Source: a virus (Duplodnaviria > Heunggongvirae > Uroviricota > Caudoviricetes). Taken from it: a stretch of DNA of 48,684 bases. The translations under genes were made by a program, and so were the position numbers. This document shows, piece after piece, positions 7,661 through 35,473 of this stretch (position 1 is the first letter of the stretch; every line of letters begins with the position of its first letter). Under the pieces are notes generated by a model. That model was not told where the DNA came from and made no database searches. It saw only the letters and a list, made by a program, of their open reading frames with translations. The stretch lies in the IMG/VR virus record IMGVR_UViG_2923302340_000001. One strand, given 5' to 3'.

Positions 7661-8080
7661 ATGTCATATTTTTATTCTGCATCGACAAACGGATTTTATT
7701 CGACTGAATTTCACGGCACCAATATTCCTGATGATGCAGTGGAAATCTCGGAATCAGAGTGGAAAACACTGATTAATTCACAGAGTGTCACAAAAATGAT
7801 TACCTGTGGTGAGGACGGTCACCCTGTCATTGTTGACCGTCCTTCTCCAACACCAGAACAATTAGCCTTAATAAATGATGAAAAGAAATCTGCACTGATA
7901 GCAGAAGCAACGAATGTAATAGCGCCGCTTCAGGATGCGGTTGATTTAGGTATGGCAACAAATGATGAAACGAAACTGTTACTGGCATGGAAAAAATATC
8001 GCGTGCTATTGATGCGTATTAATACTTCAACAGCACTCGATATTGAATGGCCTACGCCTCCGGCAGTTCAGGCCAGATGA
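7661..8080 (+). CDS. tail fibre assembly chaperone
   Basis: ATG 5 nt after fibre stop; C-terminus ...[28 protein letters not shown] typical of fibre assembly proteins (track start 7565 overlaps fibre gene). Confidence 0.7.
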
Positions 8081-8654
8081 CATCCGGCGCTGTGCTGGTA
8101 TCTGTTGCCGTCACCGCGTCAATGTAATCCAGCACAGCGTTAAGGCGGGTTGTTTCTGCCTGCGTCAGCTTTCGCCCAGCCTGTAATTTCAGTTGAATCA
8201 GACTAATGGAAGCCATTGCAGCATCAATCAGTGACTGGCGCTGTGCTTCTGCCGCTTCTACTGCGGCACCGTGTTGTGCCTCAACATCCGTCACCCATTT
8301 CTCACCATCCCATTTATCGTATGGCGTTAACGGGGCGATAGTGGTTGTATTTTCAGGATAGTCGCCCGGTGCAGTTATTTCTTTGGCGTCACCCGTTTCG
8401 GTGTTATAGACGATTTCACCACGATGGTCTGGCACATATTCCCATGAATTTAAATCCACAGAACGGCAGATTGCATAACCAGCCTTATGTATGCCGGGGG
8501 CATCTAAACAAGAATATGCCGGAATACCAACACCTACCGCAAGATATTCAGTTGATGCGGAAATATATTCCTTTGTCTCACTGTCATAGTTGTAAACGAT
8601 GATGTTTCCTTCCTGTACGGCAATAAGTTCATTATTCAATATCGCGCTATTCAT
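8052..8654 (-). CDS. tail fibre assembly chaperone, alternative cassette
   Basis: 200 aa; C-terminus ...[24 protein letters not shown]; convergent with 7661..8080. Confidence 0.7.
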
Positions 8655-9104
8655 TATGCAGCTCTCACAATATAGTTAAATGCAATATTTCTCGGACGGG
8701 TTTCACGCCCACCAGGAATTTGAAAAGCATTAGCGGTTGTAGATCCGCCTTCCTGATTAATTCCTGTTGTATAAATACCACTCACACCATTTTGCAATGC
8801 AAATACTGTTGCGGTTCCAGGCCCACCACCGGGCCCAAAATACTTAAGTTCGAACTTTTTAATATCATCACTCTGAATATTCAATAAAGCACGTCCTGTA
8901 TCAATGCCGCGTCCATCATCCCAGCCACGAATAAACTCACCGCGTAAATCAGGAAGTTTTCCTGACGGGTATGCTTTGGCAAGAGTTGGATATTTCACCT
9001 TATCAAAGGCAGCACCGTTGCATTTCAGCCAGCCCGTTGGAGGGGTTGCGGAGGGCCACGGAACAGGTACACCAACAGGCAGCGCCGAACCTTCCCCAAA
9101 CCAA
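8654..9104 (-). CDS. promoterless alternative tail-fibre C-terminal cassette B
   Basis: Shares a 232-bp direct repeat (8881..9112 vs 9367..9599) including the crossover-like site with cassette A; no ATG; motif KYPTLAKAYPSGKLPDLRGEFIRGWDDGRGID; ends ...RPRNIAFNYIVRAA. Confidence 0.45.
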
Positions 9105-9116
9105 CGTTTTTATGCA
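9091..9116 (-). other. candidate crossover site (cassette B)
   Basis: Plus strand CTTCCCCAAACC AA CGTTTTTATGCA; minus strand carries the TTGGTTT core in inverted orientation relative to 7283..7308; overlaps stop of cassette A. Confidence 0.4.
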
Positions 9117-9640
9117 GCCCTCACGATAAAGTTAAATGCAATATTTCGTGGACGGGTTTCACTCCCGCCAGTATTACCGATACTCCCTCGTGAATGAAGT
9201 GTCGGTGATGGAATCAGAGTTCCTCCGGCATCGGCAGCATCAAGCCCCCGGCCTTGCGTATATGCTCTTCTGAAGATTGTCGCCAGTTCCCATTCCTCTT
9301 TTGAATCATACCCATCGTTGGCAACAACAATATGGCGGTGTTTTTCCAGCATCCCAGTCTGAATGCTCAATAAAGCACGTCCTGCATCAATACCACGCCC
9401 GTCATCCCAGCCACGAATAAACTCACCGCGTAAATCAGGAAGTTTTCCTGACGGGTATGCTTTGGCAAGAGTTGGATATTTCACCTTATCAAAGGCAGCA
9501 CCGTTGCATTTCAGCCAGCCCGTTGGAGGGGTTGCGGAGGGCCACGGAACAGGTACACCAACAGGCAGCGCCGAACCTTCCCCCAAACCAACGTTTTTAA
9601 CTTCGTGAACTGAGCTATCTAATAGCATTTTCACTAACAT
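9110..9640 (-). CDS. alternative tail-fibre C-terminal cassette A
   Basis: 176-aa ORF; codons downstream of the crossover-like site are in the frame needed for fusion to the fibre constant part (...DYL | GLGEGSALPVGVPVPW...). Confidence 0.5.
   Translation of the reverse strand: MLVKMLLDSSVHEVKNVGLGEGSALPVGVPVPWPSATPPTGWLKCNGAAFDKVKYPTLAKAYPSGKLPDLRGEFIRGWDDGRGIDAGRALLSIQTGMLEKHRHIVVANDGYDSKEEWELATIFRRAYTQGRGLDAADAGGTLIPSPTLHSRGSIGNTGGSETRPRNIAFNFIVRAA
9578..9603 (-). other. candidate crossover site (cassette A)
   Basis: Plus strand TTCCCCCAAACC AA CGTTTTTAACTT; minus strand AAGTTAAAAACG TT GGTTTGGGGGAA; 45 bp from invertase start. Confidence 0.45.
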
Positions 9641-9647
9641 AAACGGG

Positions 9648-10217
9648 ATGCTTTTTATGCAAATTGGCTATATTCGCGTATCAACAAATGACCAGAATAC
9701 AGATTTACAACGTAATGCTCTGAACTGTGCAGGATGTGAGCTGATTTTTGAGGATAAAATCAGTGGAACGAAGTCAGCCAGACCGGGATTGAAAAAACTG
9801 CTCAGAACGTTATCAGAAGGAGACACGCTGGTTGTCTGGAAGCTGGACAGGTTGGGTAGAAGCATGAAACACCTGATCACTCTTATTGAGGAACTACGGG
9901 AAAAAGGTGTTAATTTCCGTAGTCTGACGGACAGCATTGATACATCAACCCCTATGGGGCGTTTCTTTTTTCACGTCATGGGGGCTTTAGCAGAAATGGA
10001 GCGTGAATTAATTGTTGAGAGAACATTGGCTGGACTGGCAGCAGCTCGCGCACAGGGCCGCATTGGTGGGCGCCGCCCGAAGCTGACAAAAGAACAGCAT
10101 GAGCAAATAGCAAGGCTGATTAAAAACGGTCACGAGAGGAAACAACTGGCGATCATTTACGACATTGGTATATCAACGATTTATCGCTATCACCCTGTAG
10201 GAAGTGATTCAGCTTAA
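9648..10217 (+). CDS. DNA invertase, Hin/Gin/Cin/Pin-type serine recombinase
   Basis: N-terminus (M)QIGYIRVSTNDQNTDLQRNAL, ...TLVVWKLDRLGRSMKHL..., ...GRFFFHVMGALAEMERELIVERT..., C-terminal HTH; alternative ATG at 9657. Confidence 0.9.
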   Translation: MLFMQIGYIRVSTNDQNTDLQRNALNCAGCELIFEDKISGTKSARPGLKKLLRTLSEGDTLVVWKLDRLGRSMKHLITLIEELREKGVNFRSLTDSIDTSTPMGRFFFHVMGALAEMERELIVERTLAGLAAARAQGRIGGRRPKLTKEQHEQIARLIKNGHERKQLAIIYDIGISTIYRYHPVGSDSA

Positions 10218-10435: not shown

Positions 10436-10475
10436 TACGATTGTGGGTGTCTGGTTGGAAACTGACCAGATATGG

Positions 10476-10600
10476 AAACAAAAAGCCCGCAGATAAATCT
10501 GCGGGCTTCTTGCGACATCCACGGAAAACCAACAAAACAATCCATGGGCGCCTCGACAACTCCCATTATACGTTGGTTTTCCGTGGACGCAAGAGCGAAC
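10476..10600 (-). ncRNA. candidate antisense RNA (CopA-like) opposite the repA leader
   Basis: Minus-strand intrinsic terminator (GCCCGCAG-ATAAAT-CTGCGGGC then T-run, 10476..10506) and 15-bp perfect stem 10519..10533 / 10572..10586 directly upstream of repA start. Confidence 0.3.
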
Positions 10601-10602
10601 AT

Positions 10603-11451
10603 ATGGATAGACCAATGCCGTCTCTACGTTCAGCTTACGTTTGTAATTTGTCGCCGGAGTTCCAGCCTCCAAAGCACCATACGCACAAGCTGCCGCTGGT
10701 GTTATCTGATGCTTTACAGCGCATTTATGGGCGTGATCTTACGTGTGAGGTTGCGTTCTACGTTAATCAACCGTCAGAGCGGAAGCGCCGGATAAACGAG
10801 CATCGTCGTCGGGCGATTAATGCTGTGATTGCTGCGATTTTGCACCATGTAAACATCATTTCTAAGCGGGTTCTGGCCAGTGCTGAGGCGTTGGCTGATT
10901 TTTGCGGCCTGTCTACCGTATCCGAAGCTGGGAACAAATCTATAACGCGCTGTACAAGGGCGTTGTCGCAACTGAAAGCGTTAGGTTTTATTGATTATGA
11001 ACGTCGCTGGGATCGGGTGAATAAACAGTATTGGCCAGCGAAAATAGAGATTCGTGATCAACTGCTGGAAACAGTTGGTATTACTGAACAAGCATGGAGA
11101 CGTGCGGTTAGCCAGAAACTTAATTACTTCAATGCGAAGAATAGCGAACGGCTTAAAAAAGCGATAACGGAGGCTGATTATAAGCGTATTGTTATTCAGG
11201 AGCAGATGGAGAATGTATGGCGTCAGAGGAAGACGGCCAGAGAGATAAAGGCAAAACAGAAAGCAGCGGAGAGAGCTGCGCGTCTTGTTCGGGAAAAGGG
11301 AGAGGCCGAACTTCGTCATCAAATCACTAGAGAGGTTAGCCAGGAATTTGCTGATGGCATGTATCCAGGTGCTGACCTTGCATATTTACGCTCCCTCGTT
11401 GATCAGCGTTATAACAGGCTAAGAAAGACCTGGACATCACTCCAACATTAA
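10603..11451 (+). CDS. repA: replication initiator RepA, IncFII RepA1-like
   Basis: ...RRRAINAVIAAILHH...CGLSTVSEAGNKSITRCTRALSQLKALGFIDYER... resembles RepA1 of IncFII plasmids (recollection); track start 10441 is an in-frame upstream extension; ATG at 10603 or 10615. Confidence 0.7.
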   Translation: MDRPMPSLRSAYVCNLSPEFQPPKHHTHKLPLVLSDALQRIYGRDLTCEVAFYVNQPSERKRRINEHRRRAINAVIAAILHHVNIISKRVLASAEALADFCGLSTVSEAGNKSITRCTRALSQLKALGFIDYERRWDRVNKQYWPAKIEIRDQLLETVGITEQAWRRAVSQKLNYFNAKNSERLKKAITEADYKRIVIQEQMENVWRQRKTAREIKAKQKAAERAARLVREKGEAELRHQITREVSQEFADGMYPGADLAYLRSLVDQRYNRLRKTWTSLQH

Positions 11452-13944: not shown

Positions 13945-14034
13945 AGCATTGCTGAAATGTCTTTTTCAAGACCTTGCCAATAAGCTAAACAAAAATGTTT
14001 AATGCTTCGCCTAAAAAAACACCAGTTACTATTA

Positions 14035-14145
14035 TTTATATAATTATAGATTTATATAAAAAGTGCTTTACATGTGGGAAAAAATTTCCTAAGGTTATAC
14101 CCGAAACCGAGCGATACCCGCCCTGGTTAAACCGGAGATAACCCG
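14035..14145 (+). promoter_or_regulatory. repeated promoter/leader cassette, copy 1
   Basis: ~110 bp nearly identical to 23415..23525 and 30666..30775: AT palindrome, TTTATATAAA, TTTACA-17 nt-TAAGGT, conserved leader ACCCGAAACCGAGCGATACCCGCCCTGGTTAAACCGGAGA, then ATG. Confidence 0.45.
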
Positions 14146-14526
14146 ATGAGCATGATTAAAATCCGCAAAAACGCTTTCCTTAAAATTCAAACTATCCTGG
14201 CTGGTTCTGTTGGCGTGATTTGCCGTTCTTCCTCAAGCCGCATCGATGACGGCTACGATGATGAGTATCGTGTGTCCTCATGCGATGAGGCTTTAACCTG
14301 GCTGAAGGAGAATCAGGAACGTGCCCAGGTATATCTGGAAACAGAGAACGGCAATCAGATGCTGCGTATTAGCGGTCGTTATGGATTTGAAACTACATTC
14401 ATGGCCTATTTTAATCAGGCTTACTTTGACAAGGAGTTGGCTTGGTACACTGATCGCATGAGCAAAAGCGAGCCAGCCCCGATTACACCGCCGAACAATA
14501 AACCATTTTTATTCCTCGTTAAGTAA
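14146..14526 (+). CDS. hypothetical protein (first gene behind cassette copy 1)
   Basis: 126 aa; no motif recognised. Confidence 0.35.
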   Translation: MSMIKIRKNAFLKIQTILAGSVGVICRSSSSRIDDGYDDEYRVSSCDEALTWLKENQERAQVYLETENGNQMLRISGRYGFETTFMAYFNQAYFDKELAWYTDRMSKSEPAPITPPNNKPFLFLVK

Positions 14527-16144: not shown

Positions 16145-16169
16145 GCGCCCAAATCGGGCGCTTTGTTTT
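16145..16169. terminator. intrinsic terminator
   Basis: GCGCCC-AAATC-GGGCGC followed by TTTGTTTT. Confidence 0.5.
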
Positions 16170-17310
16170 ATGGTTTTGCACCTGCGGCCAGTTTATCCGC
16201 AGATATCTTTATCAGTTCCTGTAGTGTCCTGGCTGGTAGGTTTGCATCCAGTACGCTGAGTATGCTGTTGTGATCTGCCTGGTCGACTACTTTGCCTGTC
16301 GGTGGTAGTAGCTTGAGCTGAGGATTCAGGTTTTCGTCAAAGCTGATCAGTGCTCTGGCGTTTCTGAGCAGATCAAGAAGTAAGGCTGATATCACATCAT
16401 CTTTAGTCATTGTTGGTAGATTTAGTGCCGCTTTAGTTTTCTCCGTCGCCTTGTCAAACTCTTTGATTAGTGTCTTGCGGTAGTTTGGTTCCGTTAATAG
16501 CCGATGATGTTCTGTTGCCGTTCGGATAATCTTTGTTTCCTGATACAGTCGGTTGTATAGCATTCGCTCGTATTCTGCCTTTAACACGCTGCTGATAGCG
16601 TTAAAGGCTTCAATGTAGGCCAGCTTGATATCCTTCACGCCTGGACCGTCGATACTTTCCATGAGCAAGGTAAATCCGTCTTTTGTCATGCGATAGATTG
16701 TTATTTCGCGGTCGCTTCCTTCCAGCGGTCGTTGCTCTTTAAAGAAATGACGTGCCGCAGCTGTACGAGGAATGCGTAACGCATCGATGGCCATAACGAT
16801 GGAATTGTTTGTGGTGCTGAATGCCTGGGCTACATCGGCTGAGGTTGTGAGTGGCTCGTTGTTGCACACCTTAACGTAATACATTGGTTTGGCGTTGAGT
16901 GTATCGACAACCTCACGAGCATTGTTTGGCGAGACGGTTACGGTCGCGGCCGTTTGCGCGTTCTGGTTGAAATAGCAGTCTTCCAGCCGTTCGAATACAT
17001 CCCACGCCTGATCGGTTTCGAGCATTTTAGCGTGACGTGCAGCCCCGCGTTCGGTCCAGAGAATTAGGGAGCGGGCATTTTTACCAACTAACCCGATTGT
17101 TTCGGGTCTGTTCTTGAACTCGCGTAATTCGTTTTTTTCAATTTTAAAGTAATGCTTTCCGGCTACGAATCGCGTCGTGTTGTTCAGAAAGTTATCAGAA
17201 ATGTTTTTGATTTTCGTTCCGTATAACTGCGCCAGAAGTTCACTAGTGATAACGGGGATCTGGTTATGCAGGATAGGCTGTAGGGTGTTAACGGTCGGAA
17301 GCGTTTTCAT
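16168..17310 (-). CDS. antirepressor-like protein (KilA-N/ORF6N-type N-terminal domain plus Rha-like domain)
   Basis: 380 aa; N-terminus ...PVITSELLAQLYGTKIKNISDNFLNNTTRFVAGKHYF...; domain calls by recollection. Confidence 0.55.
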   Translation of the reverse strand: MKTLPTVNTLQPILHNQIPVITSELLAQLYGTKIKNISDNFLNNTTRFVAGKHYFKIEKNELREFKNRPETIGLVGKNARSLILWTERGAARHAKMLETDQAWDVFERLEDCYFNQNAQTAATVTVSPNNAREVVDTLNAKPMYYVKVCNNEPLTTSADVAQAFSTTNNSIVMAIDALRIPRTAAARHFFKEQRPLEGSDREITIYRMTKDGFTLLMESIDGPGVKDIKLAYIEAFNAISSVLKAEYERMLYNRLYQETKIIRTATEHHRLLTEPNYRKTLIKEFDKATEKTKAALNLPTMTKDDVISALLLDLLRNARALISFDENLNPQLKLLPPTGKVVDQADHNSILSVLDANLPARTLQELIKISADKLAAGAKP

Positions 17311-17498: not shown

Positions 17499-17662
17499 GG
17501 TGATAGTTCCCTTAAAGGTTAAGGATACTCACCACCGTCTGGTTCCAATCATTGGGTGGTGAGACGTACAGGGTTGGAACTACCGGTCACCATGGAATCC
17601 GGCGAGTCTTACGACTCCCCCGCACGCCCCACCATAATTTGGGTGTAGCAGTGCTTTACGCA

Positions 17663-17683
17663 TAAAAAAACCGCTAACGCGGT
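17663..17683 (-). terminator. candidate intrinsic terminator (minus strand)
   Basis: ACCGC-TAAC-GCGGT followed on the minus strand by T7. Confidence 0.4.
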
Positions 17684-17828
17684 ATGCGCCATGATGATTA
17701 TCGGGGTTCCAATCCCGACCGTAGATTTTGCTACGGCTCGGAAAGTGTCCACCAATGGCGCATTCATGTCAATACGGCGGGATTTTAACAGAGACAACCA
17801 CATAGCGTGGGTTTATTGGTAGGCAGAA

Positions 17829-17857: not shown

Positions 17858-18234
17858 CTTTCGTGCTGATCGGATTCGCGGTCCTTTCAGCATTACGTTG
17901 TTGTATAAATACAACCACGCAAGCACAAACAGCGATCATATTCTTACCCAACTGAATAAAATTGTCCAAATAAATTTGGTTTATTAGAGCACAAAAGCGA
18001 GTGATTTTTGTGGTGTGTATTTAAGTTGATGAAAAACAATATGTTTTTATCCCTTCATTATGAAGGGGCTGCGGTGTAACATTACGCGGGGCCTTTTCGC
18101 CGATTCGCAACCGGGCACCGACTTTCAGGAAAGGATTATCCACTTGCCGTACCACGCAGGCACAAACAGCGTGCTTGCTCTCGCGTCATTTTCGTCGGTG
18201 GGGATGCCGTGAAACGGCCTGTAAGGGCCACACA

Positions 18235-18357
18235 ATGAAAAAATACTACATGTGTATTTTTATCGTTGTTACTGGAGCTTTGTTTACGCCACATGGGGAG
18301 GGTTGGAAGATTACTGATAACGCTCTGAATGTGACGATAAACATTAGCAGCAAGTAG
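18235..18357 (+). CDS. small hydrophobic peptide (40 aa)
   Basis: MKKYYMCIFIVVTGALF...; followed by a strong terminator. Confidence 0.2.
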   Translation: MKKYYMCIFIVVTGALFTPHGEGWKITDNALNVTINISSK

Positions 18358-18362
18358 CGATT

Positions 18363-18386
18363 AGGCCCCTTCGGGGGCTTTTTTTA
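18363..18386 (+). terminator. intrinsic terminator
   Basis: AGGCCCC-TTCG-GGGGC followed by T7. Confidence 0.6.
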
Positions 18387-18607: not shown

Positions 18608-18856
18608 TTACTTCTGGTTGTATTGAGCCTTGAGTAACTCAAAAGATTTTGTCAGCACTTCTTTCAATGACATATCCATTGAGCTGGCGAACGTTTTGTA
18701 CTCGCGTTTAAATTCAGGGTCGACGTTAAACGCCATCTGTGCCCCACCTGATTTGGTTCTGGTCGGCGTTTCAGTCGGGTCGAAAACCTGCGGTTGTTCG
18801 ATTGATGGCGGTACGCCTTTGCTGTTCTTTTTCGGTGGTTTTGATGGTGCGGCCAT
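18608..18856 (-). CDS. ParG-like ribbon-helix-helix partition/centromere-binding protein
   Basis: 82 aa; basic Pro-rich N-terminus; C-terminal ...FNVDPEFKREYKTFASSMDMSLKEVLTKSFELL... RHH-like; directly downstream of ParA. Confidence 0.45.
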   Translation of the reverse strand: MAAPSKPPKKNSKGVPPSIEQPQVFDPTETPTRTKSGGAQMAFNVDPEFKREYKTFASSMDMSLKEVLTKSFELLKAQYNQK

Positions 18857-18899
18857 GTGTATCCCCTTTTATATAAATCTATAAAACTATAATTATATA

Positions 18900-19568
18900 T
18901 TACGCGGCAGTAGTCAGAGCCTCAAGCTGATTGATAATCCCCTGGATAACATCGTCTGCCTTTTTGCGTGGCGCAACGTATGAACACTCAATGAGGCTTA
19001 AGCCCTTATCCTGAGCTTTGCTCAGAGCTGGCTTGTGGGGAATGTACTTATCGACAACAAAGTATGGCGTATTAGCCAGGTACTCTTGGGCTTCGATGTA
19101 GTCAGCTTCGTTTTCAGCCGCGCCGGAAAACACCATGCAAATTTTCTTGATTGGTACACCCTTTTTAACGATGCCGTGAGCAGTGTTAACGGTGGTTTCC
19201 AGGTCATCGGTAGAGAATCGGGTTGGCAAAATAACCATATCCAGAAATTCAGATAGCTTCGGTACTGATTCAGATGCGTAGGCACCGCCATCAACGATAA
19301 CCAGGTCGTATACTTCTGATTCGATGATTTTCTGGACTTGTGATGGCGTGCCGCACGGCTGCGCCGCGATTGCAGGTTCGATATTGTTGGCCATTCTGCG
19401 TTGTACCCAACGCGTTACCGTTCCGTTAAGCACATCCATATCGATCAGGCATACATTCCAGCCAGCCTTTGCATAAGCAACTGCTAAAGCACGAGCAATG
19501 GTTGATTTGGTTACGCCGCCTTTTCCGTTGAAAATACCTACAGATATAGTCATTTGTCGAGACTCCAT
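18900..19568 (-). CDS. parA: ParA/ParF-type partition ATPase
   Basis: Deviant Walker A GIFNGKGGVTKST; 222 aa (alternative start 19553). Confidence 0.8.
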   Translation of the reverse strand: MESRQMTISVGIFNGKGGVTKSTIARALAVAYAKAGWNVCLIDMDVLNGTVTRWVQRRMANNIEPAIAAQPCGTPSQVQKIIESEVYDLVIVDGGAYASESVPKLSEFLDMVILPTRFSTDDLETTVNTAHGIVKKGVPIKKICMVFSGAAENEADYIEAQEYLANTPYFVVDKYIPHKPALSKAQDKGLSLIECSYVAPRKKADDVIQGIINQLEALTTAA

Positions 19569-19574
19569 GTGTTT

Positions 19575-19674
19575 GATTATATAATTCTATAAATCTATAT
19601 TTATAGAATGAGGTAAGCATAACCAACTTTTGAGCGGATGAAAAGCACTTTATATAATTATATAAATCTATAAT
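19575..19674. promoter_or_regulatory. partition-operon promoter with two AT-rich palindromic boxes (candidate centromere/operator)
   Basis: GATTATATAATTCTATAAATCTATATTTATAGAAT (19575..19609) and AAAAGCACTTTATATAATTATATAAATCTATAAT (19641..19674) upstream of parA. Confidence 0.4.
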
Positions 19675-19702
19675 ATGTAAGCGGGCTGGCGCCCGCTTGC
19701 AG

Positions 19703-20077: not shown

Positions 20078-20112
20078 GCGTAGCCTCTTTTATACTTTTT
20101 CATGTTGTCAAA

Positions 20113-20127
20113 ACCACAAAGCGTGGT
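20113..20127. promoter_or_regulatory. ACCACAAAGCGTGGT palindrome downstream of cI (operator-like; could also be a terminator hairpin)
   Basis: Same ACCAC-N5-GTGGT pattern as in the cI/cro intergenic region; followed by T-run on plus strand. Confidence 0.35.
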
Positions 20128-20169
20128 TTTTTTGAGCGTAGAAATGCACGGCTTTCGCCGTGCTGTGTA

Positions 20170-20832
20170 TCATAACCAGTTGACAACACTAACTACGCGG
20201 CCAAGAACTTTATAACGCTTAAATTCCTCGTTATTCAGATGCTTAGTGTTCATTTCAGCATCCCTTTCGGTTGACAGCATAACAGCATTGTCACCCGGTA
20301 TGACTCTACAGTGCCTCAAAACAACCAGGCCATTTCTGTCTTCAAGGGCATAGATCCCCTCATGAATCTCTGTATCGTCTGTATTAATCAGGACTTGGGA
20401 GCCAGGGGATATTGTTGGTGACATTAGCTTTAGCTCATCGTTGCTCTGGAGAACAGACAGAGACGATGGGTTGATGTTCTTGCTTCGTAGAATCTCCTGT
20501 TCTATCGCCAGCACTGGCTTTTCTCCGGCGTGCGATGCTATGTCATTTTTTATAGCTACAAGCCCAGGAATAACAGGAGCGTTAGTATTCTGGGGTGGGA
20601 ACGGGTTATCTGTTAAGCACGCGATATAAGGCGCTGATGCTTTCAGGGCGTGCGCGATTTTCTTGATGGCAGGTATAGATGGTTGTCTTAATCCGGCCTC
20701 ATAGTTCTGCAAGGTGCTTAAGCCTATTCCAGTGACTTGCTGGAGATCTCCGGCAGTCATGCCGGATTGTTTCCGTAGAGTCTGAATGCGCAGACCTATT
20801 TCTTTCTTGATGTTCTCGTCGTTGCTTTTCAT
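20170..20832 (-). CDS. CI-like repressor (N-terminal HTH, C-terminal S24/LexA-like peptidase domain)
   Basis: 220 aa; HTH ...MTAGDLQQVTGIGLSTLQNYE...; C-terminal autocleavage-type domain; divergent from cro-like gene. Confidence 0.75.
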   Translation of the reverse strand: MKSNDENIKKEIGLRIQTLRKQSGMTAGDLQQVTGIGLSTLQNYEAGLRQPSIPAIKKIAHALKASAPYIACLTDNPFPPQNTNAPVIPGLVAIKNDIASHAGEKPVLAIEQEILRSKNINPSSLSVLQSNDELKLMSPTISPGSQVLINTDDTEIHEGIYALEDRNGLVVLRHCRVIPGDNAVMLSTERDAEMNTKHLNNEEFKRYKVLGRVVSVVNWL

Positions 20833-20869: not shown

Positions 20870-20986
20870 ACCACATTTAGTGGTTTTCACACGGCAAGAC
20901 GAGAGCTAGACCACAAATAGAAGGTTATTTTTTGTTTTCCCATTGAAAAACTCACGATTTGTGGTTTTAATACCACATATCGTGGT
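20870..20986. promoter_or_regulatory. cI/cro divergent control region with ACCAC-N5-GTGGT operators
   Basis: Perfect sites 20870..20884 (ACCACATTTAGTGGT) and 20972..20986 (ACCACATATCGTGGT); degenerate sites 20910..20924 and 20951..20965. Confidence 0.45.
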
Positions 20987-23355: not shown

Positions 23356-23414
23356 AAGTGTCATTTTGAGCTGTTTTGGTGATTTGTAGACACCGGGAAT
23401 ATCGGAAAATCTAT

Positions 23415-23525
23415 AAATATATAATTATATATTTATATAAAAAGTGCTTTACAGGTGGGAAAAAATTTCCTAAGGTTATACCCAAAACCGAGCGATACCC
23501 GCCCTGGTTAAACCGGAGAAATCTG
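23415..23525 (+). promoter_or_regulatory. repeated promoter/leader cassette, copy 2
   Basis: TATATAATTATATA (23418..23431), TTTATATAAA, TTTACAGGTGGG..., conserved leader, ATG at 23526. Confidence 0.45.
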
Positions 23526-24593
23526 ATGAATAAACAAGTAATTATTTCTGACTGGATCAACAACCCTAACAGCCTGTTGAGCACTGATACTGGCTATAGA
23601 TTACGTCATGTTAATGGCCGTATGGTCAAAAGCGATGAGCACGAAACCTTTTTCGTTGTTGAAGACGATGGACGTCTTTATGAGGATGGTCACTCTTATG
23701 AATCCCAAACAGGTTGTATCCCTGCAGAGTTGGTAGACGTAACAGAAAAGCTGCGCAAAGCATGGCTTGAACAGCAGCAGCGCGGAGATGATTACGTAAA
23801 TACCTATCAGGAGCGCCAGAACGCGCGTCTTGCCCGATATATTGCTCGTGCAGAAAAAGCCAGAAAAGAAGGTGCGGTGGCGCATAAGCGAGCGCATGAA
23901 CTGTTGGATGTGATCCCGTTAGGCCAGCCGATTTTAGTTGACCATTATAGCGCGAAAGGCCATCGCCGCCGTTTGTCTAAAGCTGATGCGTTATTCAGAA
24001 AATCGTTTGTTGAGTGTGAAAGCAGAGCATCGTACTACGAAAGCAAAGCCGCAGGTGTCGGCCGTAATGGAGTTTCGTCTGATGATCCTGATGCGCTATT
24101 TAAGTTGCTTCGTAAGCTGCAAGGCTGCATGAAGTCACACATCAAAATGAAGGCCGCAAATAAGGCTATTCGCAAATACAAAAAAGACCAATTACAGCAG
24201 CTTTCCGCATTAATTGACCTTGAGTTTACTGAAAGCGAAGCCAAAGGGTTACTCGCCGGAGATTTCTGTGGGCACATTGGCTTCCCTTCATACTCACTGA
24301 GTAACAATAATGCCGAAATCAAACGACTACAGAGCCGTATTAAGGAGCTTGAATCGGTCAAGTCTGTAACAGGAGCACAGCGCGAAGAATACGACGGCTT
24401 TTCTATGGAGATAGATCCAGAGGATAACCGTATCCTGTTTTATTTCCCTGGCAAACCAGAGGCAAACATTCGTTCGCTGCTTAAATCACGCGCCTTTAAG
24501 TGGAGTCCAACCCGTAATGCATGGGTTCGCAAGATTACTCCAAACGCCCTGGCTGATGCCCGATATCTGAAAGAATCGCTATTGAAAGCCTGA
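23526..24593 (+). CDS. DUF3560-like protein (tentative)
   Basis: ATG 23526 directly after conserved leader (track start 23376 would translate the promoter cassette); 355 aa. Confidence 0.4.
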   Translation: MNKQVIISDWINNPNSLLSTDTGYRLRHVNGRMVKSDEHETFFVVEDDGRLYEDGHSYESQTGCIPAELVDVTEKLRKAWLEQQQRGDDYVNTYQERQNARLARYIARAEKARKEGAVAHKRAHELLDVIPLGQPILVDHYSAKGHRRRLSKADALFRKSFVECESRASYYESKAAGVGRNGVSSDDPDALFKLLRKLQGCMKSHIKMKAANKAIRKYKKDQLQQLSALIDLEFTESEAKGLLAGDFCGHIGFPSYSLSNNNAEIKRLQSRIKELESVKSVTGAQREEYDGFSMEIDPEDNRILFYFPGKPEANIRSLLKSRAFKWSPTRNAWVRKITPNALADARYLKESLLKA

Positions 24594-24624: not shown

Positions 24625-24650
24625 TATATAGAATTATATATTTATATAAA
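24625..24650. promoter_or_regulatory. AT-rich palindromic box upstream of 24671 gene
   Basis: TATATAGAATTATATA + TTTATATAAA. Confidence 0.35.
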
Positions 24651-24670
24651 TGTATAAGGACGCCTCGACA

Positions 24671-24952
24671 ATGAAACGCAAAATTATTAACCCCCAAGAT
24701 GTGATTAATTTCCTGACCGATCACCCATGTTCAAAAGTGGACGTAATCGCGGAACACATTGGTGTGTCGCAGAACTCTATGCGTTGCAGACTGAGAAGCA
24801 TGGTTGCCGAAGGACAGATAACAACCAGGAAAATAAATGGTTGCCTGTACTACTCCGCTAAACCGGAATTGCCATTTGGCATGAATCCTAACTCCATGTT
24901 GTTTAACACCTTATTAGCCAAAGTTAAGCCGTTGAGAGGGGCTGTGGCATGA
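24671..24952 (+). CDS. small DNA-binding-like protein (winged helix?)
   Basis: AAGGA 11 nt upstream of ATG 24671; ...VDVIAEHIGVSQNSMRCRLRSMVAEGQI... Confidence 0.3.
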   Translation: MKRKIINPQDVINFLTDHPCSKVDVIAEHIGVSQNSMRCRLRSMVAEGQITTRKINGCLYYSAKPELPFGMNPNSMLFNTLLAKVKPLRGAVA

Positions 24953-25502: not shown

Positions 25503-26182
25503 AAGAACGTGGTGTTGTTTTTAATGACGATATGGTTAGGGCCATCCTCGAAGGAAGGAAGACGCAGACTCGCCGACCTGTAAAAAATGTCAGGGCCGAT
25601 AACTGCCTGGTTATCCGTAAACCGACAAAGAAACGCAATGGTGTCTATACCCACGTTATGGATGCACCTGAATATGGTTTATGCCCGTTCGGTAACGTTG
25701 GTGATCGCATATGGGTCCGTGAAGCGTGGGCGATATTAGGCAATGAGGATGGTTGCAGTGTGGACTGGAACGACAACCTTTGTCGTGGCGATGAGAAGAA
25801 CGCAGCAAGGATTTATCGGGCCAGTTGTGAGCAAAAACCGGGGGATTATGGCTTATGGTCGATACCCGATGATGCCGACTGGAAGCCTCACACTGTGAAT
25901 GAAAAGTTTGATGGTGGGTGGCGTCCATCAATTCACATGCCGCGCTGGGCTTCGCGTATTTTGCTGGAAATTACCGACGTGCGTGTGGAACGGCTGCATG
26001 ACATGAGCGAGGCAGATGCTAAAGCGGAAGGCGCATCTCCGGCGACGTACAAGATTACACCGCCGGAAGCGGTTTATCGCGTTGGCTTTGGTGATATCTG
26101 GCGCGGTATTTACGGGCAAGAGAACTGGCTATCTAACCCGTGGGTATGGGTAATTGAGTTTAAGCGTATTCAGGAAGCATAA
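25499..26182 (+). CDS. phage protein with ASCH/PUA-like N-terminus (tentative)
   Basis: ...MVRAILEGRKTQTRRP... Confidence 0.3.
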   Translation: MKERGVVFNDDMVRAILEGRKTQTRRPVKNVRADNCLVIRKPTKKRNGVYTHVMDAPEYGLCPFGNVGDRIWVREAWAILGNEDGCSVDWNDNLCRGDEKNAARIYRASCEQKPGDYGLWSIPDDADWKPHTVNEKFDGGWRPSIHMPRWASRILLEITDVRVERLHDMSEADAKAEGASPATYKITPPEAVYRVGFGDIWRGIYGQENWLSNPWVWVIEFKRIQEA

Positions 26183-26526: not shown

Positions 26527-27211
26527 CATCACAGCAATTAATTATCAGGCGCTACGTGAGGCAGCAGAAGAAGAAATTATGCTGCGAACTGCAAGCGACA
26601 CGTCAGATAACTGGCAGGATTTAGCAACTCCAGAGGCTATGCTGGCACTACTGGATGAACGGGAAAGAAATCAGCAATACATCAAACGCCGCGACCAGGA
26701 GAACGAGGATATTGCGCTAACGGTAGGGAAGCTGAGAGTTGAGCTTGAGGAAGTAAAACAACACGCTGAAGAATTATCCGAAACCAAGGCTGTTCGTAAC
26801 CAATGGCGGCCAGATATTTGCCCAATAACCGGACGTGCATTTTTCATGTGGATTGAGCATCCAACATTGGGAAATGTGCCGACATATGGTGGCACATTAG
26901 ATAGTTACACCATTCCAACAAAGGACGGTGACGGTGAGTTTTCATGTGAGCGTTACGATCATGATTTTGGCGGTTGGGTAGAAAGCGAATGTCTTGGGTT
27001 ATATCTGATTGATGATAGAGAACAATGCAGGGTCTACGAACTGGAGGAACGCGTTAAGGAACTGGATGCTCGGGAAATATCGCTCCCGGAACGTAGCAGC
27101 ATGCTTCATCGAACAGATTTTCACGATGATTACCAAACGGTAATGGCATACAAAGTTTCTGAAGTCATCGCTGCAATCCGCGCCGCAGGCATTCGCATCA
27201 AAGGAGAGTGA
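26519..27211 (+). CDS. Ead/Ea22-like protein
   Basis: ATG 26519 overlapping upstream stop; ...DICPITGRAFFMWIEHPTLGNVPTYGGTLDSYTIP... (recollection of lambda ea22 family); track ORF 26201..27211 has an out-of-context upstream extension. Confidence 0.45.
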   Translation: MTNITAINYQALREAAEEEIMLRTASDTSDNWQDLATPEAMLALLDERERNQQYIKRRDQENEDIALTVGKLRVELEEVKQHAEELSETKAVRNQWRPDICPITGRAFFMWIEHPTLGNVPTYGGTLDSYTIPTKDGDGEFSCERYDHDFGGWVESECLGLYLIDDREQCRVYELEERVKELDAREISLPERSSMLHRTDFHDDYQTVMAYKVSEVIAAIRAAGIRIKGE

Positions 27212-27212
27212 T

Positions 27213-27587
27213 ATGACCACTATTACCAAAGAGCGACTACTGACAATCAAGCAGTGGCGCGAAACATACGGACCTGGTAGCAACGTTGTACTGCCAGCAG
27301 AAGAAGCGGAAGAACTGGCACGAATTGCTCTGGCATCGCTGGAAGCAGAACCGGTGGCATATCAGTATCGCCAGTGGGATGCAGAATATGATGAATGGGG
27401 AGAATGGGAAGATTGCGGGGAATGTGCTTTCGAATGGTTTGTTGAGGAAGAGAAATGTCAGGGGGCAGGTGTTCAGACCCGTAAGCTATATGCCGCGCCG
27501 CCAGTTTCGGTAACTCCGGGTGGTTGGATAAGCTGTAGTGAGAATCCATGCGCTTACGAGCAGTATTCAGATATTCAGAGCGGGTAA
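27213..27587 (+). CDS. hypothetical protein
   Basis: 124 aa; acidic, Trp-rich. Confidence 0.3.
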   Translation: MTTITKERLLTIKQWRETYGPGSNVVLPAEEAEELARIALASLEAEPVAYQYRQWDAEYDEWGEWEDCGECAFEWFVEEEKCQGAGVQTRKLYAAPPVSVTPGGWISCSENPCAYEQYSDIQSG

Positions 27588-29124: not shown

Positions 29125-29399
29125 CTGGTTTGAAAGCCGTTTTGTCATTTATCGGCACCGTTATATTGGTTGCATTCGGTGCGTTTGGTTTTGGTCGTAT
29201 GAAGGGGCGAGAAAAGGCCGAAGATGAAGCTGAAAAGCAGCGCATTAATGAGAATGCAGCCGCCGTAAAAGCCACTGCGGAGCGGCGTATAGAAGTGACA
29301 AAAGAGGTGGGGAATGTACAGCAGAGTGTTAACCATATGGCTGATGACGATGTTGATCGCGAGCTGCGGGAGTCGTGGAAGCGTCCCGGTGGTGGTTGA
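29121..29399 (+). CDS. Rz-like i-spanin
   Basis: N-terminal TM helix, charged coiled-coil region; contains overlapping +1 ORF. Confidence 0.5.
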   Translation: MTGLKAVLSFIGTVILVAFGAFGFGRMKGREKAEDEAEKQRINENAAAVKATAERRIEVTKEVGNVQQSVNHMADDDVDRELRESWKRPGGG

Positions 29400-29523
29400 T
29401 ACCGCCTGTGATTGGGTAAAGCCCATCTACCTGACTGATCACGACATCGATGTTATGGACCGCCAGACAAAGAAAGATATTCTGGCTCATAACAGGGCAT
29501 GGGAAATCAACTGCCGAAAGTAA
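29314..29523 (+). CDS. Rz1-like o-spanin lipoprotein
   Basis: Overlaps Rz-like gene in another frame; lipobox-like LIASC. Confidence 0.5.
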   Translation: MYSRVLTIWLMTMLIASCGSRGSVPVVVDTACDWVKPIYLTDHDIDVMDRQTKKDILAHNRAWEINCRK

Positions 29524-29554
29524 TATATATTTCTATAATTATATAAATATATAG
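29522..29554. promoter_or_regulatory. AT-rich palindromic box downstream of lysis genes
   Basis: AATATATATTTCTATAATTATATAAATATATAG. Confidence 0.3.
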
Positions 29555-29600
29555 TTACAACATTCTATGCGCTTTTCTCATGGGCGCACGCATCAACCAT

Positions 29601-29681
29601 GTTTGTCTGATATGCCGCCGCGCCCAAAAATCCTGAATTTATTGGCTGGGATTTTCGTGCGCGGCGCCACACCAGACAAAC
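29601..29681. repeat. long imperfect inverted repeat (~35-bp arms)
   Basis: GTTTGTCTG...GCCGCCGCGC... paired with ...GCGCGGCGCC...CAGACAAAC, immediately upstream of the tRNA. Confidence 0.5.
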
Positions 29682-29692
29682 AAATCAAATAT

Positions 29693-29768
29693 GGCCCCTT
29701 AGCTTAGTGGTTAGAGCAGGCGACTCATAATCGCACGGTCATCGGTTCAAATCCGGTAGGGGCCACCA
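29693..29768 (+). tRNA. tRNA with anticodon CAU (Met, or lysidine-modified Ile2 type)
   Basis: 76-nt cloverleaf: acceptor stem GGCCCCU/AGGGGCC, T-loop TTCAAAT, anticodon loop CTCATAA, encoded 3' CCA. Confidence 0.85.
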
Positions 29769-30076: not shown

Positions 30077-30664
30077 ATGGAGGCAATTGCATTGTTTAAT
30101 CTGATTTATGCAGATCCCCCCTGGGAATACAAAGATAAGTGTAAGGATGGGAATCGTGGAGCTGGTTTTAAGTATCCAACGATGAAAGCTGAGGATATTG
30201 CTCGTATTCCTGTCTGGCAGCTTGCTAATCCTGAATCGTGTTTGTTGGCCATGTGGTGGGTTCCGACTCAGCCAGAAGAAGCGTTGCTGGTGGTGAAAGC
30301 ATGGGGATTCAGGCTTATGACCATGAAGGGCTTCACATGGAACAAATGTGGTAGCCGACAACCAGATAAGCTGGTGATGGGGATGGGGCATATGACTCGT
30401 GCAAACAGTGAAGATTGCTTGTTTGCGGTAAAAGGCAAATTGCCGACCCGCCTTGATGCGGGGATCATTCAGTCGTTTACATCGCCTCGTCTGGAGCATT
30501 CTCGGAAGCCTGATGTGGTTCGTGACAAGCTGGTAAGGCTGTTAGGTGATGTTCCTCGTATTGAGCTGTTTGCTCGCGGTGATTTACCTGATGGTTGGCA
30601 TGGCTGGGGCAACCAGTGCAATGGAGGTATCCAGTTGCATGATGCTCTCTGGCAAGTGGCATAG
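30077..30664 (+). CDS. DNA adenine methyltransferase, MT-A70-like
   Basis: N-terminal ...IYADPPWEYKDK... (DPPW motif). Confidence 0.65.
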   Translation: MEAIALFNLIYADPPWEYKDKCKDGNRGAGFKYPTMKAEDIARIPVWQLANPESCLLAMWWVPTQPEEALLVVKAWGFRLMTMKGFTWNKCGSRQPDKLVMGMGHMTRANSEDCLFAVKGKLPTRLDAGIIQSFTSPRLEHSRKPDVVRDKLVRLLGDVPRIELFARGDLPDGWHGWGNQCNGGIQLHDALWQVA

Positions 30665-30665
30665 A

Positions 30666-30775
30666 ATTATATAATTATAGGTTTATATAAAAAGTGCTTT
30701 ACAAGTGGGAAAAAATTTCCTAAGGTTATACCCGAAACCGAGCGATACCCGCCCTGGTTAAACCGGAGAAATCTG
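30666..30775 (+). promoter_or_regulatory. repeated promoter/leader cassette, copy 3
   Basis: ATTATATAATTATAG, TTTATATAAA, TTTACAAGTGGG..., conserved leader, ATG at 30776. Confidence 0.45.
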
Positions 30776-31045
30776 ATGAAAGTACAAGACCGTGAAGTAG
30801 TAAAAAACCTCCTGCAATACCTGACCTCAAAAAACCTGACGGGCAGCGTTGAGTTCCGTGAAGCGTTAAAACATTTCAACGTCACTACGGTTTATCGTTG
30901 GGAAAACAAACATTCTGAAAGACCGTATGTGGTGGATGTTTTTGCGCCTGATATTGAGTGCGGTTTTGAGCGTCATTCGTTCAAGGAGAAACATTCTGCT
31001 GATTTTTTTTGTGAGGTTGTATGTGCGGCAGGAGATGATGAGTGA
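30776..31045 (+). CDS. hypothetical protein (first gene behind cassette copy 3)
   Basis: 89 aa; acidic Cys-containing C-terminus. Confidence 0.3.
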   Translation: MKVQDREVVKNLLQYLTSKNLTGSVEFREALKHFNVTTVYRWENKHSERPYVVDVFAPDIECGFERHSFKEKHSADFFCEVVCAAGDDE

Positions 31046-31242
31046 TGCGTATTTCCTTCAAACGTGCGACTGAGCAGCAACGCAAAGAGTTCCTGGCTGA
31101 TGATGTAGCGGCCGTTTATGACCTCATGAAAGAGGTTGTGGAATCAGGGAACTACACGGCGGCAAAGATGCTTAAACTGCAATTCTTGCTGGGCGACCTG
31201 AAATACAAATCCGAAGTTGTCGCCGGACGACGCGAGCATTAA
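31042..31242 (+). CDS. hypothetical protein
   Basis: 66 aa; ATGA overlap. Confidence 0.3.
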   Translation: MMRISFKRATEQQRKEFLADDVAAVYDLMKEVVESGNYTAAKMLKLQFLLGDLKYKSEVVAGRREH

Positions 31243-31265
31243 ACCGTAACGATAACGAACAACGA

Positions 31266-31291
31266 GCCTCGGCAATTGCCGGGGCTTTTTT
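31266..31291 (+). terminator. intrinsic terminator
   Basis: GCCTCGGC-AATT-GCCGGGGC followed by T6. Confidence 0.6.
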
Positions 31292-32740: not shown

Positions 32741-33364
32741 ATGACAAAACATCTTAATGTGGTTTCTTTACCACTTTCTGTGTTGATTGGTTATGAAAAG
32801 AACGCTCGCACACACTCCGTGGAGCAGGTAGATCAGATTGTTGCCAGCATACAGGAGTACGGATGGACTAATCCGATCCTGATAGACGAGAACAATGTTG
32901 TAATTGCTGGTCATGGTCGAATTGCTGCGGCCACTCAGTTGGGGATGGATGATGTTCCCTGCATTGTTCTGGAAGGGCTAACGGAGAATCAGAAGAAGGC
33001 ATATCGTCTGGCCGACAACCGTATTCCGCTGAATGCTGGTTGGGATGAAGAGTTGTTAAGCGCGGAGCTTGCAGATCTTGCGGCCGATGATTTTGCTCTG
33101 GACTCAATTGGTTTTACTCAGCGCGAACTGGATAACTTATTGAGTGCGGCGGTCTACGATGACACAGAGGGTATGGATATCCCATTTGAGAAGGATGAGG
33201 CCAAATCAGGCGTAAAAGTTCAGTACCTGTCATTTGGAGGTCATAAAATCCCGGCAACGGATGAGGAAGCGGATCGTTTTGACTGCGCGGTGTCTCGTTA
33301 TGTTGATGATAATGGCAGCTATATCGGATTTGTATCCGCATTGCTGGCTGGGGAGGTGTGCTGA
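32741..33364 (+). CDS. ParB-like nuclease-domain protein
   Basis: ...ILIDENNVVIAGHGRIAAA...; paralogue of 36031..36621. Confidence 0.55.
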   Translation: MTKHLNVVSLPLSVLIGYEKNARTHSVEQVDQIVASIQEYGWTNPILIDENNVVIAGHGRIAAATQLGMDDVPCIVLEGLTENQKKAYRLADNRIPLNAGWDEELLSAELADLAADDFALDSIGFTQRELDNLLSAAVYDDTEGMDIPFEKDEAKSGVKVQYLSFGGHKIPATDEEADRFDCAVSRYVDDNGSYIGFVSALLAGEVC

Positions 33365-34753: not shown

Positions 34754-35473
34754 GTGGCTGACAGAATTGAGATAAAGATGGATTTTTCTTCTCAGGATAT
34801 TCAACGACAACTCCAGCGCCTTGAAGAACGCGAATTGCCATTCGCAATGGCGCTTGCGGCAACCAGAACGGCAAAGGCTTCTCAGGCTGCGATTAAGAAT
34901 GAAATTAATCGGGTATTTGACAGGCCCACGCCGTGGATTCAGAACTCTACTTACGTTTTGGCCGCAAAGAAGAGTGATCCTACAGCCATTGTGTATGCTC
35001 GTGAATGGGGAGGAACGCCAGCCCCTGTAACGTTGACTCCGCAAATCGAAGGTGGCCAACGACAGTACAAACGCTCAGAAGGGGCGCTAAGGGCTGGTGG
35101 ATATTTGCCTAACGGCTGGCAGCTTGCTCCTGGTCCCGGCGCAAAGCTGGACAAATACGGGAATATTTCGCGGGGGCAATTACAGCAGGTCTTATCTGGC
35201 CTAAGAGTTCAGCGAGATGCGCATCAAAATCGCCGTCAGGGCAAGCCTACGGAGTTTTTTGTTGTTCGACCTGGTACAAGTAACCCGCTTCAACCAGGCG
35301 TCTGGCAGCGCGTTGGGCGGCGTCCTACGTTGATCCTTACGTTCATTCAGCAACCTAACTATTCGCAGCGTCTTGATTGGCATGGCGTGGCACTGCGTGC
35401 TGGTGAGGATGCGTTTGCTGATGAAGTCACAAAGGCTATTGATGACATTCTTTCTAAGACCTTCTCTCGTTAA
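34754..35473 (+). CDS. hypothetical protein
   Basis: 239 aa; Gly/Pro/Gln-rich central region. Confidence 0.3.
   Translation: MADRIEIKMDFSSQDIQRQLQRLEERELPFAMALAATRTAKASQAAIKNEINRVFDRPTPWIQNSTYVLAAKKSDPTAIVYAREWGGTPAPVTLTPQIEGGQRQYKRSEGALRAGGYLPNGWQLAPGPGAKLDKYGNISRGQLQQVLSGLRVQRDAHQNRRQGKPTEFFVVRPGTSNPLQPGVWQRVGRRPTLILTFIQQPNYSQRLDWHGVALRAGEDAFADEVTKAIDDILSKTFSR

Follow-up and report, generated by a model that had tools for sequence, protein, structure and literature searches.

Tandem 8-bp arrays at the partition locus and at distal sites of an Escherichia coli phage-plasmid are probable targets of a ParG-like ribbon-helix-helix protein

The repressor MetJ binds DNA as one ribbon-helix-helix (RHH) dimer per 8-bp palindromic metbox, with two to five metboxes in tandem and cooperative dimer-dimer contacts, a mode of binding reportedly described by Somers and Phillips in 1992. 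KorB of RK2, a ParB protein, has 12 dispersed OB operators and is a global transcriptional regulator, its targets including transfer operons. In N15, the centromere sites are said to lie in regions of phage gene expression, an observation credited to Ravin and Lane (1999) and to Grigoriev and Lobocka (2001). The N15 SopAB system has four dispersed centromere palindromes, IR1 to IR4 (PMC7205306). In TP228, ParG recognizes tetramer boxes that, with their 4-bp AT-rich spacers, recur with an 8-bp period; one dimer binds each box, the units lie in either orientation, and the DNA is coated cooperatively (PMC3130281). The ParG site upstream of parFG is both centromere and operator, and at least eight boxes are needed for efficient centromere activity (PMC3130281). 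The RHH ParB protein omega of pSM19035 acts at six parS sites, each of 7 to 10 heptads; these overlap three promoters and double as centromeres and operators, and omega activates or represses depending on its concentration (PMC9499535, PMC4627068); at least four contiguous repeats are needed (PMC9499535). Here we describe a parA gene, its small downstream partner and a set of short tandem arrays in the virus record IMGVR_UViG_2923302340_000001, all 48,684 bp of which we analyzed and call the window; it is a complete circular phage-plasmid of E. coli. What appears to be new, as read from the sequence, is a type Ib RHH partition system with 8-bp arrays spread across a phage-plasmid genome.

The window contains 30 copies of an 8-bp palindromic unit, arranged head to tail in arrays of three or four at exactly eight intergenic sites. 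The consensus is TTATATAA (W-T-A/C-T-A-T/G-A-W). Across the 30 units, T4 and A5 are invariant (30 each) and T2 and A7 nearly so (28 and 29); position 3 is A or C (A22/C7), mirrored by T or G at position 6 (T25/G5), and the outer positions are T19/A10 at position 1 and A22/T7 at position 8. The arrays lie at 14036-14059 (three units), 18869-18900 (four, touching the parA stop codon), 19577-19608 (four), 19650-19673 (three), 23409-23440 (four), 24626-24657 (four), 29523-29554 (four) and 30659-30690 (four, the first of them degenerate, GCATAGAA). All eight sites had been listed in an initial annotation of this DNA, and each was found where it had been placed, in intergenic DNA; the box itself, given there as “TATATAATTATATA plus TTTATATAAA”, is better described as three or four tandem 8-bp palindromic units.

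These arrays are real and highly nonrandom. TATA-N4-TATA occurs 25 times in the 48,684 bp, every time within the eight sites, and neither TATA-N3-TATA nor TATA-N5-TATA occurs at all. The in-phase triple TATA-N4-TATA-N4-TATA had 13 matches, compared with 0 in 100 dinucleotide shuffles, and two or more in-phase units were found 15 times, all in the eight sites, compared with 0 in 30 shuffles. Strict single units outside the sites numbered 14, against the approximately 15 per genome expected from shuffles. As an AT-matched control, we shuffled only the arrays and 6 nt on each side of them; the in-phase TATA triple was then recovered at 0.06 of the eight sites on average, compared with 8/8 observed. 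Four other stretches of the genome that are at least 85% AT all lacked the array pattern. The suggestion that the motif might be no more frequent than expected of AT-rich intergenic DNA therefore fails against both shuffled and AT-matched sequence. A period-8 autocorrelation scan misses most of the arrays because the units lie in both orientations. Two further candidates were rejected: a ninth copy at the end of the window (48671), which is a single unit inside the tape-measure gene, and a reading of the arrays as iterons or an origin, since they do not lie near repA (10441-11451).

Three arrays, with 11 units between them, are placed around parA and the gene for an 82-aa candidate ParG-like centromere-binding protein (18608..18856, minus strand). 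Along the minus strand the order is a terminator hairpin, the distal array, the −35 and −10 elements, the proximal array, GGAG and the parA ATG, parA, the third array, a ribosome-binding site and the ATG of the 82-aa gene. The distal array (19650..19673; units TTATATAA TTATATAA ATCTATAA) abuts the terminator hairpin of the gene upstream of parA (19679-19698) and sits directly upstream of the parA −35 element. The predicted parA promoter (19616..19644, minus strand) consists of a −35 element, TTTTCA (19639-19644), a 17-bp spacer and a −10 element, TATGCT (19616-19621). Downstream of this −10 element and upstream of the parA ribosome-binding site, in the classic position of an operator, lies the proximal array (19577..19608; units TTATATAA TTCTATAA ATCTATAT TTATAGAA). 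The third array (18869..18900; units TTATATAA ATCTATAA AACTATAA TTATATAT) stops just before the ribosome-binding site of the RHH gene, 12 nt from that gene's ATG. The coordinates thus agree with the earlier placement of two copies in the parA promoter and one between parA and the ParG-like gene. A generic sigma-70 scan called neither the parA promoter nor the cassette promoters described below (8/12 matches, below threshold), and the predictions rest on conservation in relatives; for parA, a −35 element and a TAnnnT −10 element 17 to 18 bp apart are found at the same place in all of them.

The parA gene (18900..19553, minus strand) starts at an ATG (19553) preceded by GGAG and encodes 217 aa; the longest open reading frame (ORF) starts at 19568 and would give 222 aa. 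Its product is a small Walker-type partition ATPase, with a Pfam CbiA/ParA/MipZ match from residue 10, a ParA-like assignment to phrog_164 and a distant match to TP228 ParF (4dzz; E value, 3e-4), and the RefSeq annotation of a relative agrees with parA. At 217 to 222 aa and with no N-terminal DNA-binding domain, it has the form of the small ParA proteins (~200 to 220 aa) of type Ib systems.

The 82-aa protein follows directly downstream of parA and has a flexible N-terminal tail, as is typical of the RHH partner in type Ib systems. Its last 40 residues read as a β-strand, QMAFNV, followed by two helices. In an AlphaFold2 model, a disordered Lys/Pro-rich tail (residues 1 to 40) precedes the helices (residues 47 to 59 and 64 to 79), in keeping with an RHH fold. 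The top-ranked Foldseek matches in the PDB were RHH proteins (PutA, CdbA, CopG, Arc and AmrZ), with target-normalized TM-scores of 0.7 to 0.86. A phmmer search of the PDB with the 82-aa sequence found nothing, and the evidence for an RHH protein comes from profiles and fold. Members of the family match the Pfam models RHH_10, Antitox_RHH, HicB, 56B_RHH and, weakly, ParG, and when a profile of the wider family was run against the PDB, the best match was TP228 ParG (1p94), in register over residues 29 to 75 (E value, 0.28). The Pfam ParG family itself, PF09274, was matched weakly by 1/34 (E value, 0.22) and 1/48 (E value, 0.0015) relatives, and Omega_Repress was matched weakly by 1/34 family members (E value, 0.088), which indicates no sequence relationship to omega. 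The 82-aa protein would thus be a functional analogue or remote relative of ParG rather than a member of PF09274. The family comprises 872 clusters (50% identity; E value of ≤1e-3) and has no Pfam model of its own. Its N-terminal motif is MA-x-P-x-K-P-P-K-K-x-K-G-x-P-P, with a conserved tail Arg in the phage-plasmid classes, and by analogy the tail is presumably the part that contacts ParA.

Rfam also gives a full-length match to the ryfA RNA (18087-18385, plus strand; 135 bits), on the strand opposite the RHH gene and directly downstream of it. It may mark a small toxin/antisense maintenance locus next to par.

The other five arrays, with 19 units, lie away from par. Three of them belong to near-identical 127-nt promoter cassettes, in each of which the array lies just upstream of a −35 element, TTTACA, with a gap of 7 nt, and is followed by a spacer palindrome, GGAAAAAATTTCC, a weak −10 element, TAAGGT, a conserved leader, a ribosome-binding site and an ATG. 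The cassettes are predicted to drive unrelated small transcription units. Cassette 1 (14031..14157, plus strand) has its −35 element at 14067-14072, the spacer palindrome at 14077-14089 and the −10 element at 14090-14095, and its downstream part runs through the leader and ribosome-binding site to the ATG of a 126-aa gene. Cassette 2 (23412..23538, plus strand) drives a DUF3560 gene (23526-24593), and cassette 3 (30662..30788, plus strand) drives two small genes (30776-31045 and 31042-31242) followed by a terminator (31264-31287). The array at 24626..24657 comes after a hairpin behind the DUF3560 gene and abuts the start region GGACGCCTCGACAATG of a 93-aa gene (ATG at 24671), which resembles the parA start region, GGAGTCTCGACAAATG. 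The last array, at 29523..29554, directly follows the stop codon of ORF 29314-29523, where the lysis region ends. About 45 nt separate it from a long hairpin (29600-29682), which is in turn followed by tRNA-Met (29693-29768); the hairpin is an inverted repeat with 34-nt arms, 85% complementary, and a 15-nt loop. Over the whole set, four arrays fall where an UP element would lie, at approximately −37 to −62 relative to predicted promoters, with AAAAAGTGC beside the −35 element. The remaining four lie downstream of the parA −10 element (one), against ribosome-binding sites (two) and after a stop codon (one). The arrays therefore overlap several promoters in the manner of the omega sites, abutting the −35 elements of four predicted promoters and occupying four further sites.

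The cassettes have features of their own beside the arrays. The palindrome (G/A)GGAAA-N3-TTTCCT lies in the −35/−10 spacer of all three (14077-14089, 23458-23470 and 30708-30720) and is probably the operator for a second regulator, separate from the arrays. The leader, of about 45 nt, is conserved and folds better than shuffled sequences (z, −2.8). When we compared the window with the Salmonella relative (L012; cassettes at 17608-17730, 26738-26860 and 35011-35133), several of the differences were common to all three copies in each genome, for example GTGGGAAAAAATTTCC versus GTAGGAAAATATTTCC. The cassettes are evolving in concert, which implies either gene conversion or coevolution with a trans-acting factor. 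A start region of the form GGA-n-n-CTCGACAA(A)TG is common to parA (19551-19566) and to unrelated cargo genes that follow arrays, in the window (24657-24673) and in three other elements (L002, ~38090; L003, ~27710; L006, ~5931-5945). It looks as if the proximal operator and the 5′ end of parA have been reused as a portable module.

Homologues of the RHH protein were present in two phage-plasmids of Serratia, a myovirus and a siphovirus, and in a Citrobacter phage-plasmid, the Salmonella relative, IMG/VR contigs, the conjugative plasmid pESA2, a Serratia plasmid of 14.6 kb, pKTa005_6 of E. coli, and small contigs with parA, the RHH gene and little else (a resolvase or a primase). None of pESA2, the 14.6-kb plasmid and pKTa005_6, which are ordinary plasmids, has phage genes. 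Only the genes for ParA and the RHH protein were common to all the contexts compared. In every case with sequence upstream of parA, 8-bp-period arrays were present both upstream of the parA −35 element and downstream of the −10 element, so the short tandem repeats at the par promoter that are expected of a type Ib system are found in the window and in all of the relatives examined. Most relatives had a further array between parA and the RHH gene or after the RHH gene. The P0049 contig, in which the gene has no parA upstream of it at the contig end, was uninformative.

The unit itself differs among lineages, and the differences track three alternating residues of the β-strand that are predicted to face DNA; we take these to correspond to Q9, N11 and R13 of Arc. 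Proteins with the strand QMAFNV or QMSFNV are accompanied by the unit TTATATAA, those with (A/P/L)MNFNV by TTAAATAA or CTTTA, PMHFNV by AAACATTT, PLNFKV and PMNFRV by AAATAACG, and NMNLSV by AATAAAGG. The strand QLLLRL goes with GATATA/TATATC, and QLLLQL goes with a unit in the same frame but without the G. An Arg or Lys at the third β-strand position thus accompanies a G in the unit, a pairing that would fit ordinary readout of guanine by Arg or Lys.

We then scanned each element for dispersed arrays, using the units at its own parA promoter as the dictionary and requiring three in-phase units with at most one mismatch each, with five shuffles per element. In the window the scan returned the eight sites and nothing else, and the shuffles of every element yielded no cluster. 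It found 8 clusters in the Salmonella relative, 8 and 6 in the two Serratia elements, 7 in L022 (20 kb), 5 to 8 in Citrobacter-type elements (20 kb), with a count of 6 for Citrobacter itself, and 6 in pESA2, and in each element the dispersed arrays carried that element's own par unit. Like those in the window, the dispersed arrays of the relatives lay just upstream of a cassette-like −35 element or directly before GGAnnCCTCGACAATG start regions, so that the arrangement at 24626 recurs. The cargo genes differed and included a Lar restriction-alleviation gene and a DGQHR-domain gene. All eight arrays were kept in the Salmonella relative, with equal numbers of units and with substitutions that fell within the degenerate consensus. 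The Serratia element L002 and the Citrobacter element L006 have a cassette spacer palindrome, TAGGACTAAAAGTCCTA, in common but different array units, which indicates that the arrays go with the par module, not with the remainder of the cassette.

In pESA2 (L004), arrays were located at 3249-3272, 3763-3786, 7913-7936, 25743-25774 and 27514-27539. Their settings include a position before a thermonuclease gene, one next to a NotI-type restriction-modification operon and one inside a type IV secretion operon.

A close counterpart in gene order is the ParF-ParG-parH/OF system of TP228, a multiresistance plasmid of E. coli. There too the gene for a small ParA-type ATPase precedes that for an RHH protein of some 80 aa whose N-terminal tail is flexible, and 8-bp-period arrays upstream of the operon act as centromere and autoregulatory operator. 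The sequence similarity is marginal, however, and the window unit is TTATATAA whereas that of TP228 is ACTC plus a spacer. TP228 has a single block of 20 boxes; the window has three blocks of three or four units around the operon, together with five arrays far from par, whereas ParG is known only as an autorepressor. The distribution of the arrays also resembles that in omega-delta of pSM19035, in which an RHH partition protein acts through short tandem repeats over several promoters as a global plasmid regulator. That system belongs to a Firmicute plasmid and uses 7-bp nonpalindromic heptads (WATCACW) in 7 to 10 copies per site, in contrast to the 8-bp unit of the window, and omega regulates copy control, partition and toxin-antitoxin genes rather than phage accessory genes. 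The initial annotation had compared the dispersal to that of N15, also a prophage-plasmid with partition sites scattered over the genome and not clustered. This analogy is loose. N15 has a type Ia system, in which SopB, a large helix-turn-helix ParB, spreads from single palindromes, with no tandem short-unit arrays and no RHH protein; the partner in the window is an 82-aa RHH protein with tandem arrays, and omega is the closer parallel. As for MetJ, it shares the short tandem arrays of 8-bp palindromic units but is a chromosomal metabolic repressor that requires a corepressor and has no role in partition. The arrays inside the type IV secretion operon of pESA2 recall KorB sites in transfer operons, although KorB is a type Ia helix-turn-helix ParB that acts on single 13-bp palindromes.

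Taking these lines together, we think it likely that the arrays are made up of 8-bp subsites for the 82-aa RHH protein, which would be the centromere-binding protein, like ParG or omega, of a type Ib partition system, and that the dispersed copies are regulatory. From the arrays, their statistics and positions, the RHH fold and the comparative pattern, we infer binding, its cooperativity and the direction of regulation. The earlier proposal that the box is a ParG-like operator or centromere gains comparative support from the arrays, the covariation of unit and protein and the RHH fold, and so does the idea that dispersal couples partition sites to gene control, where the distal arrays may be operators, extra centromeres or both. 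One RHH dimer would occupy each 8-bp unit with its β-ribbon in the major groove, and neighboring dimers would bind cooperatively, so that an array of three or four units becomes coated. At the three par arrays, the coated DNA would form the segrosome at the centromere, with the RHH protein recruiting and stimulating ParA via its N-terminal tail, and the same arrays would be the autoregulatory operator for parA and the RHH gene. The five distal arrays, three of them upstream of cassette −35 elements, one abutting the ribosome-binding site of an accessory gene and one at the end of the lysis region, would bring accessory promoters under the control of the RHH protein and may add centromere capacity. 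The likeliest effect is repression, because the arrays span the UP-element position or sit between promoter and ribosome-binding site. The output of these promoters would then depend on how much partition protein is present, and through it on copy number and establishment.

Several observations weigh against this assignment. Arrays of three or four units are short compared with the minimum numbers for TP228 and omega. The 82-aa protein has no Pfam match, its Foldseek E values are poor because the fold is tiny, and the similarity to ParG is statistically weak (E value, 0.28 by family profile). The covariation is fine scale, with several unit classes only one or two positions apart, and all genes of the compared elements diverge together. 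When the par-unit dictionaries were scanned across classes with at most one mismatch per unit, the result was not class specific because all of the units are AT rich; for this reason we give the covariation as position-level differences and not as a clean matrix. Gene conversion among the cassettes could account for the likeness of their arrays with no selection for binding. We recognized no promoter adjacent to the array at 29523, and some of the promoter effect of the four arrays at the UP-element position could be independent of protein.

The covariation also bears on whether some other element-encoded protein might own these operators, with the RHH centromere elsewhere or absent. The candidates are the 124-aa protein encoded upstream of parA, a small helix-turn-helix protein and Rha/ORF6N. 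Synteny with par extends, in all of the phage-plasmid relatives, to the CI-like repressor, the 124-aa protein and Rha, and these consequently covary with the unit as well. In pESA2, the 14.6-kb plasmid, pKTa005_6 and the small contigs L010, L027 and L028, however, the arrays are present and none of those phage genes is. Tandem short units are typical of RHH proteins and not of dimeric helix-turn-helix repressors, near par there is no other repeat suited to be a centromere, and the CI-like repressor has candidate operators of a different sequence beside its own gene. We therefore regard an operator for another repressor, which the initial annotation had offered as its alternative, as unlikely. 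A dispersed operator set like that of P1 C1 was rejected on the same grounds, the different candidate operators of the CI-like repressor and the arrays in nonphage plasmids.

The arrays might also act without a dedicated protein, as UP elements (A/T-rich tracts at −40 to −60 of sigma-70 promoters that work through the RNA polymerase alpha subunit and have no fixed repeat phase), as embedded −10-like TATAAT sequences or as bendable DNA, or might be targets of the host nucleoid proteins H-NS, IHF or Fis. Four arrays do lie at approximately −37 to −62, where their proximal part, AAAAAGTGC, adjoins the −35 element and resembles a proximal UP subsite; the units contain TATAAT; and H-NS prefers AT-rich DNA of this kind. 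Neither UP elements nor H-NS, however, would require the rigid 8-bp phasing or the T4 and A5 that 30/30 units share, and the other four arrays are not upstream of a −35 element. The pattern is absent from the other AT-rich stretches, and the unit varies between related elements of closely related hosts, changing with the RHH protein, so we consider it improbable that an explanation of this kind suffices by itself. Much the same low probability attaches to the idea that only the par arrays function and that the dispersed arrays are passengers, pieces of the par promoter copied along with cassettes and gene converted but without a role of their own. The concerted evolution of the three cassettes, the resemblance of the 24626 array and its start region to the 5′ region of parA, and the variation in downstream cargo among relatives would all fit passengers. 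Yet every lineage examined had dispersed arrays, and these carried the unit of that lineage in all cases; the noncassette sites at 24626 and 29523 are kept in Salmonella; and pESA2 has such sites within a type IV secretion operon and beside a restriction-modification operon. An abundant, cooperative DNA-binding protein would, in any case, occupy dispersed arrays, which makes their neutrality unlikely.

The element that carries this system is widespread. About 60 plasmids of 46 to 52 kb from E. coli, Salmonella and Klebsiella, including the 48.5-kb plasmid of E. coli ATCC 25922, were 97 to 99% identical to the window over the 6 kb tested, and three isolated Yersinia pestis myophages (vB_YpM_39, 41 and 44) were as close to it as those plasmids. 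The par module was found in 70 of 5,426 complete E. coli genomes, among them that of the reference strain ATCC 25922, and 70 of its 71 occurrences were plasmid borne. An affiliation with the pSLy3 phage-plasmid group was rejected, since published work shows pSLy3 to be related to SSU5; Yersinia phage HQ103 is an unrelated 32-kb phage.

The circular sequence of the window is cut within the tape-measure gene. Genes for a contractile tail and a lambda-like head module are present, together with lysis genes, genes for an IncFII-type RepA and a CI-like repressor, a P1-like c4/antirepressor module, and parA followed by the 82-aa gene. Rfam matches to the C4 antisense RNA (17552-17639, minus strand; 84 bits) and isrK (17664-17737, minus strand; 70 bits) lie directly upstream of the ORF6N/Rha antirepressor gene (16168-17310, minus strand), and from its sequence this region is identifiable as an antisense-controlled antirepressor module like immI of P1/P7. 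The CI-like repressor gene (20170-20832) is flanked by an inverted pair of AAACCAC-N5-GTGGTTT-like sequences (20103-20132 and 20946-20975), candidate CI operators that are distinct from the arrays. Three proteins with a ParB/Srx N-terminal domain are encoded before the terminase genes (32741-33364, 33358-34737 and 36031-36621), with no linkage to parA, and are probably not partition ParB proteins. One tail-fiber gene contains 168-nt tandem repeats (6343-6902), and two tail-fiber-assembly genes with repeated ends (8052-10217) adjoin a recombinase-family gene (9648-10217), an arrangement that suggests a Cin/Gin-like host-range switch.

If our reading of the arrays is right, a single 82-aa protein would link segregation, its own dosage and accessory gene expression in a phage that lives as a plasmid, and the idea drawn from omega and KorB, that a partition protein can be a global regulator, would extend to enterobacterial type Ib systems and to phages. 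The lineage-specific pairs of β-strand and unit would provide ready specificity swaps for the reading of DNA by RHH proteins, and they suggest why related phage-plasmids could coexist without partition incompatibility. In this group the arrays would also be useful annotation markers for centromeres and regulated promoters. We further propose, more tentatively, that ParG-like RHH proteins of this family are genome-wide regulators in enterobacterial phage-plasmids and conjugative plasmids, with portable array-promoter cassettes and an RHH recognition code. Were this so, cassettes of array and promoter would plug accessory, defense or antidefense genes into a partition regulon, expression of cassette genes would report plasmid copy number or establishment, and the β-strand variants with their matching 8-bp units would amount to a readable RHH recognition code.

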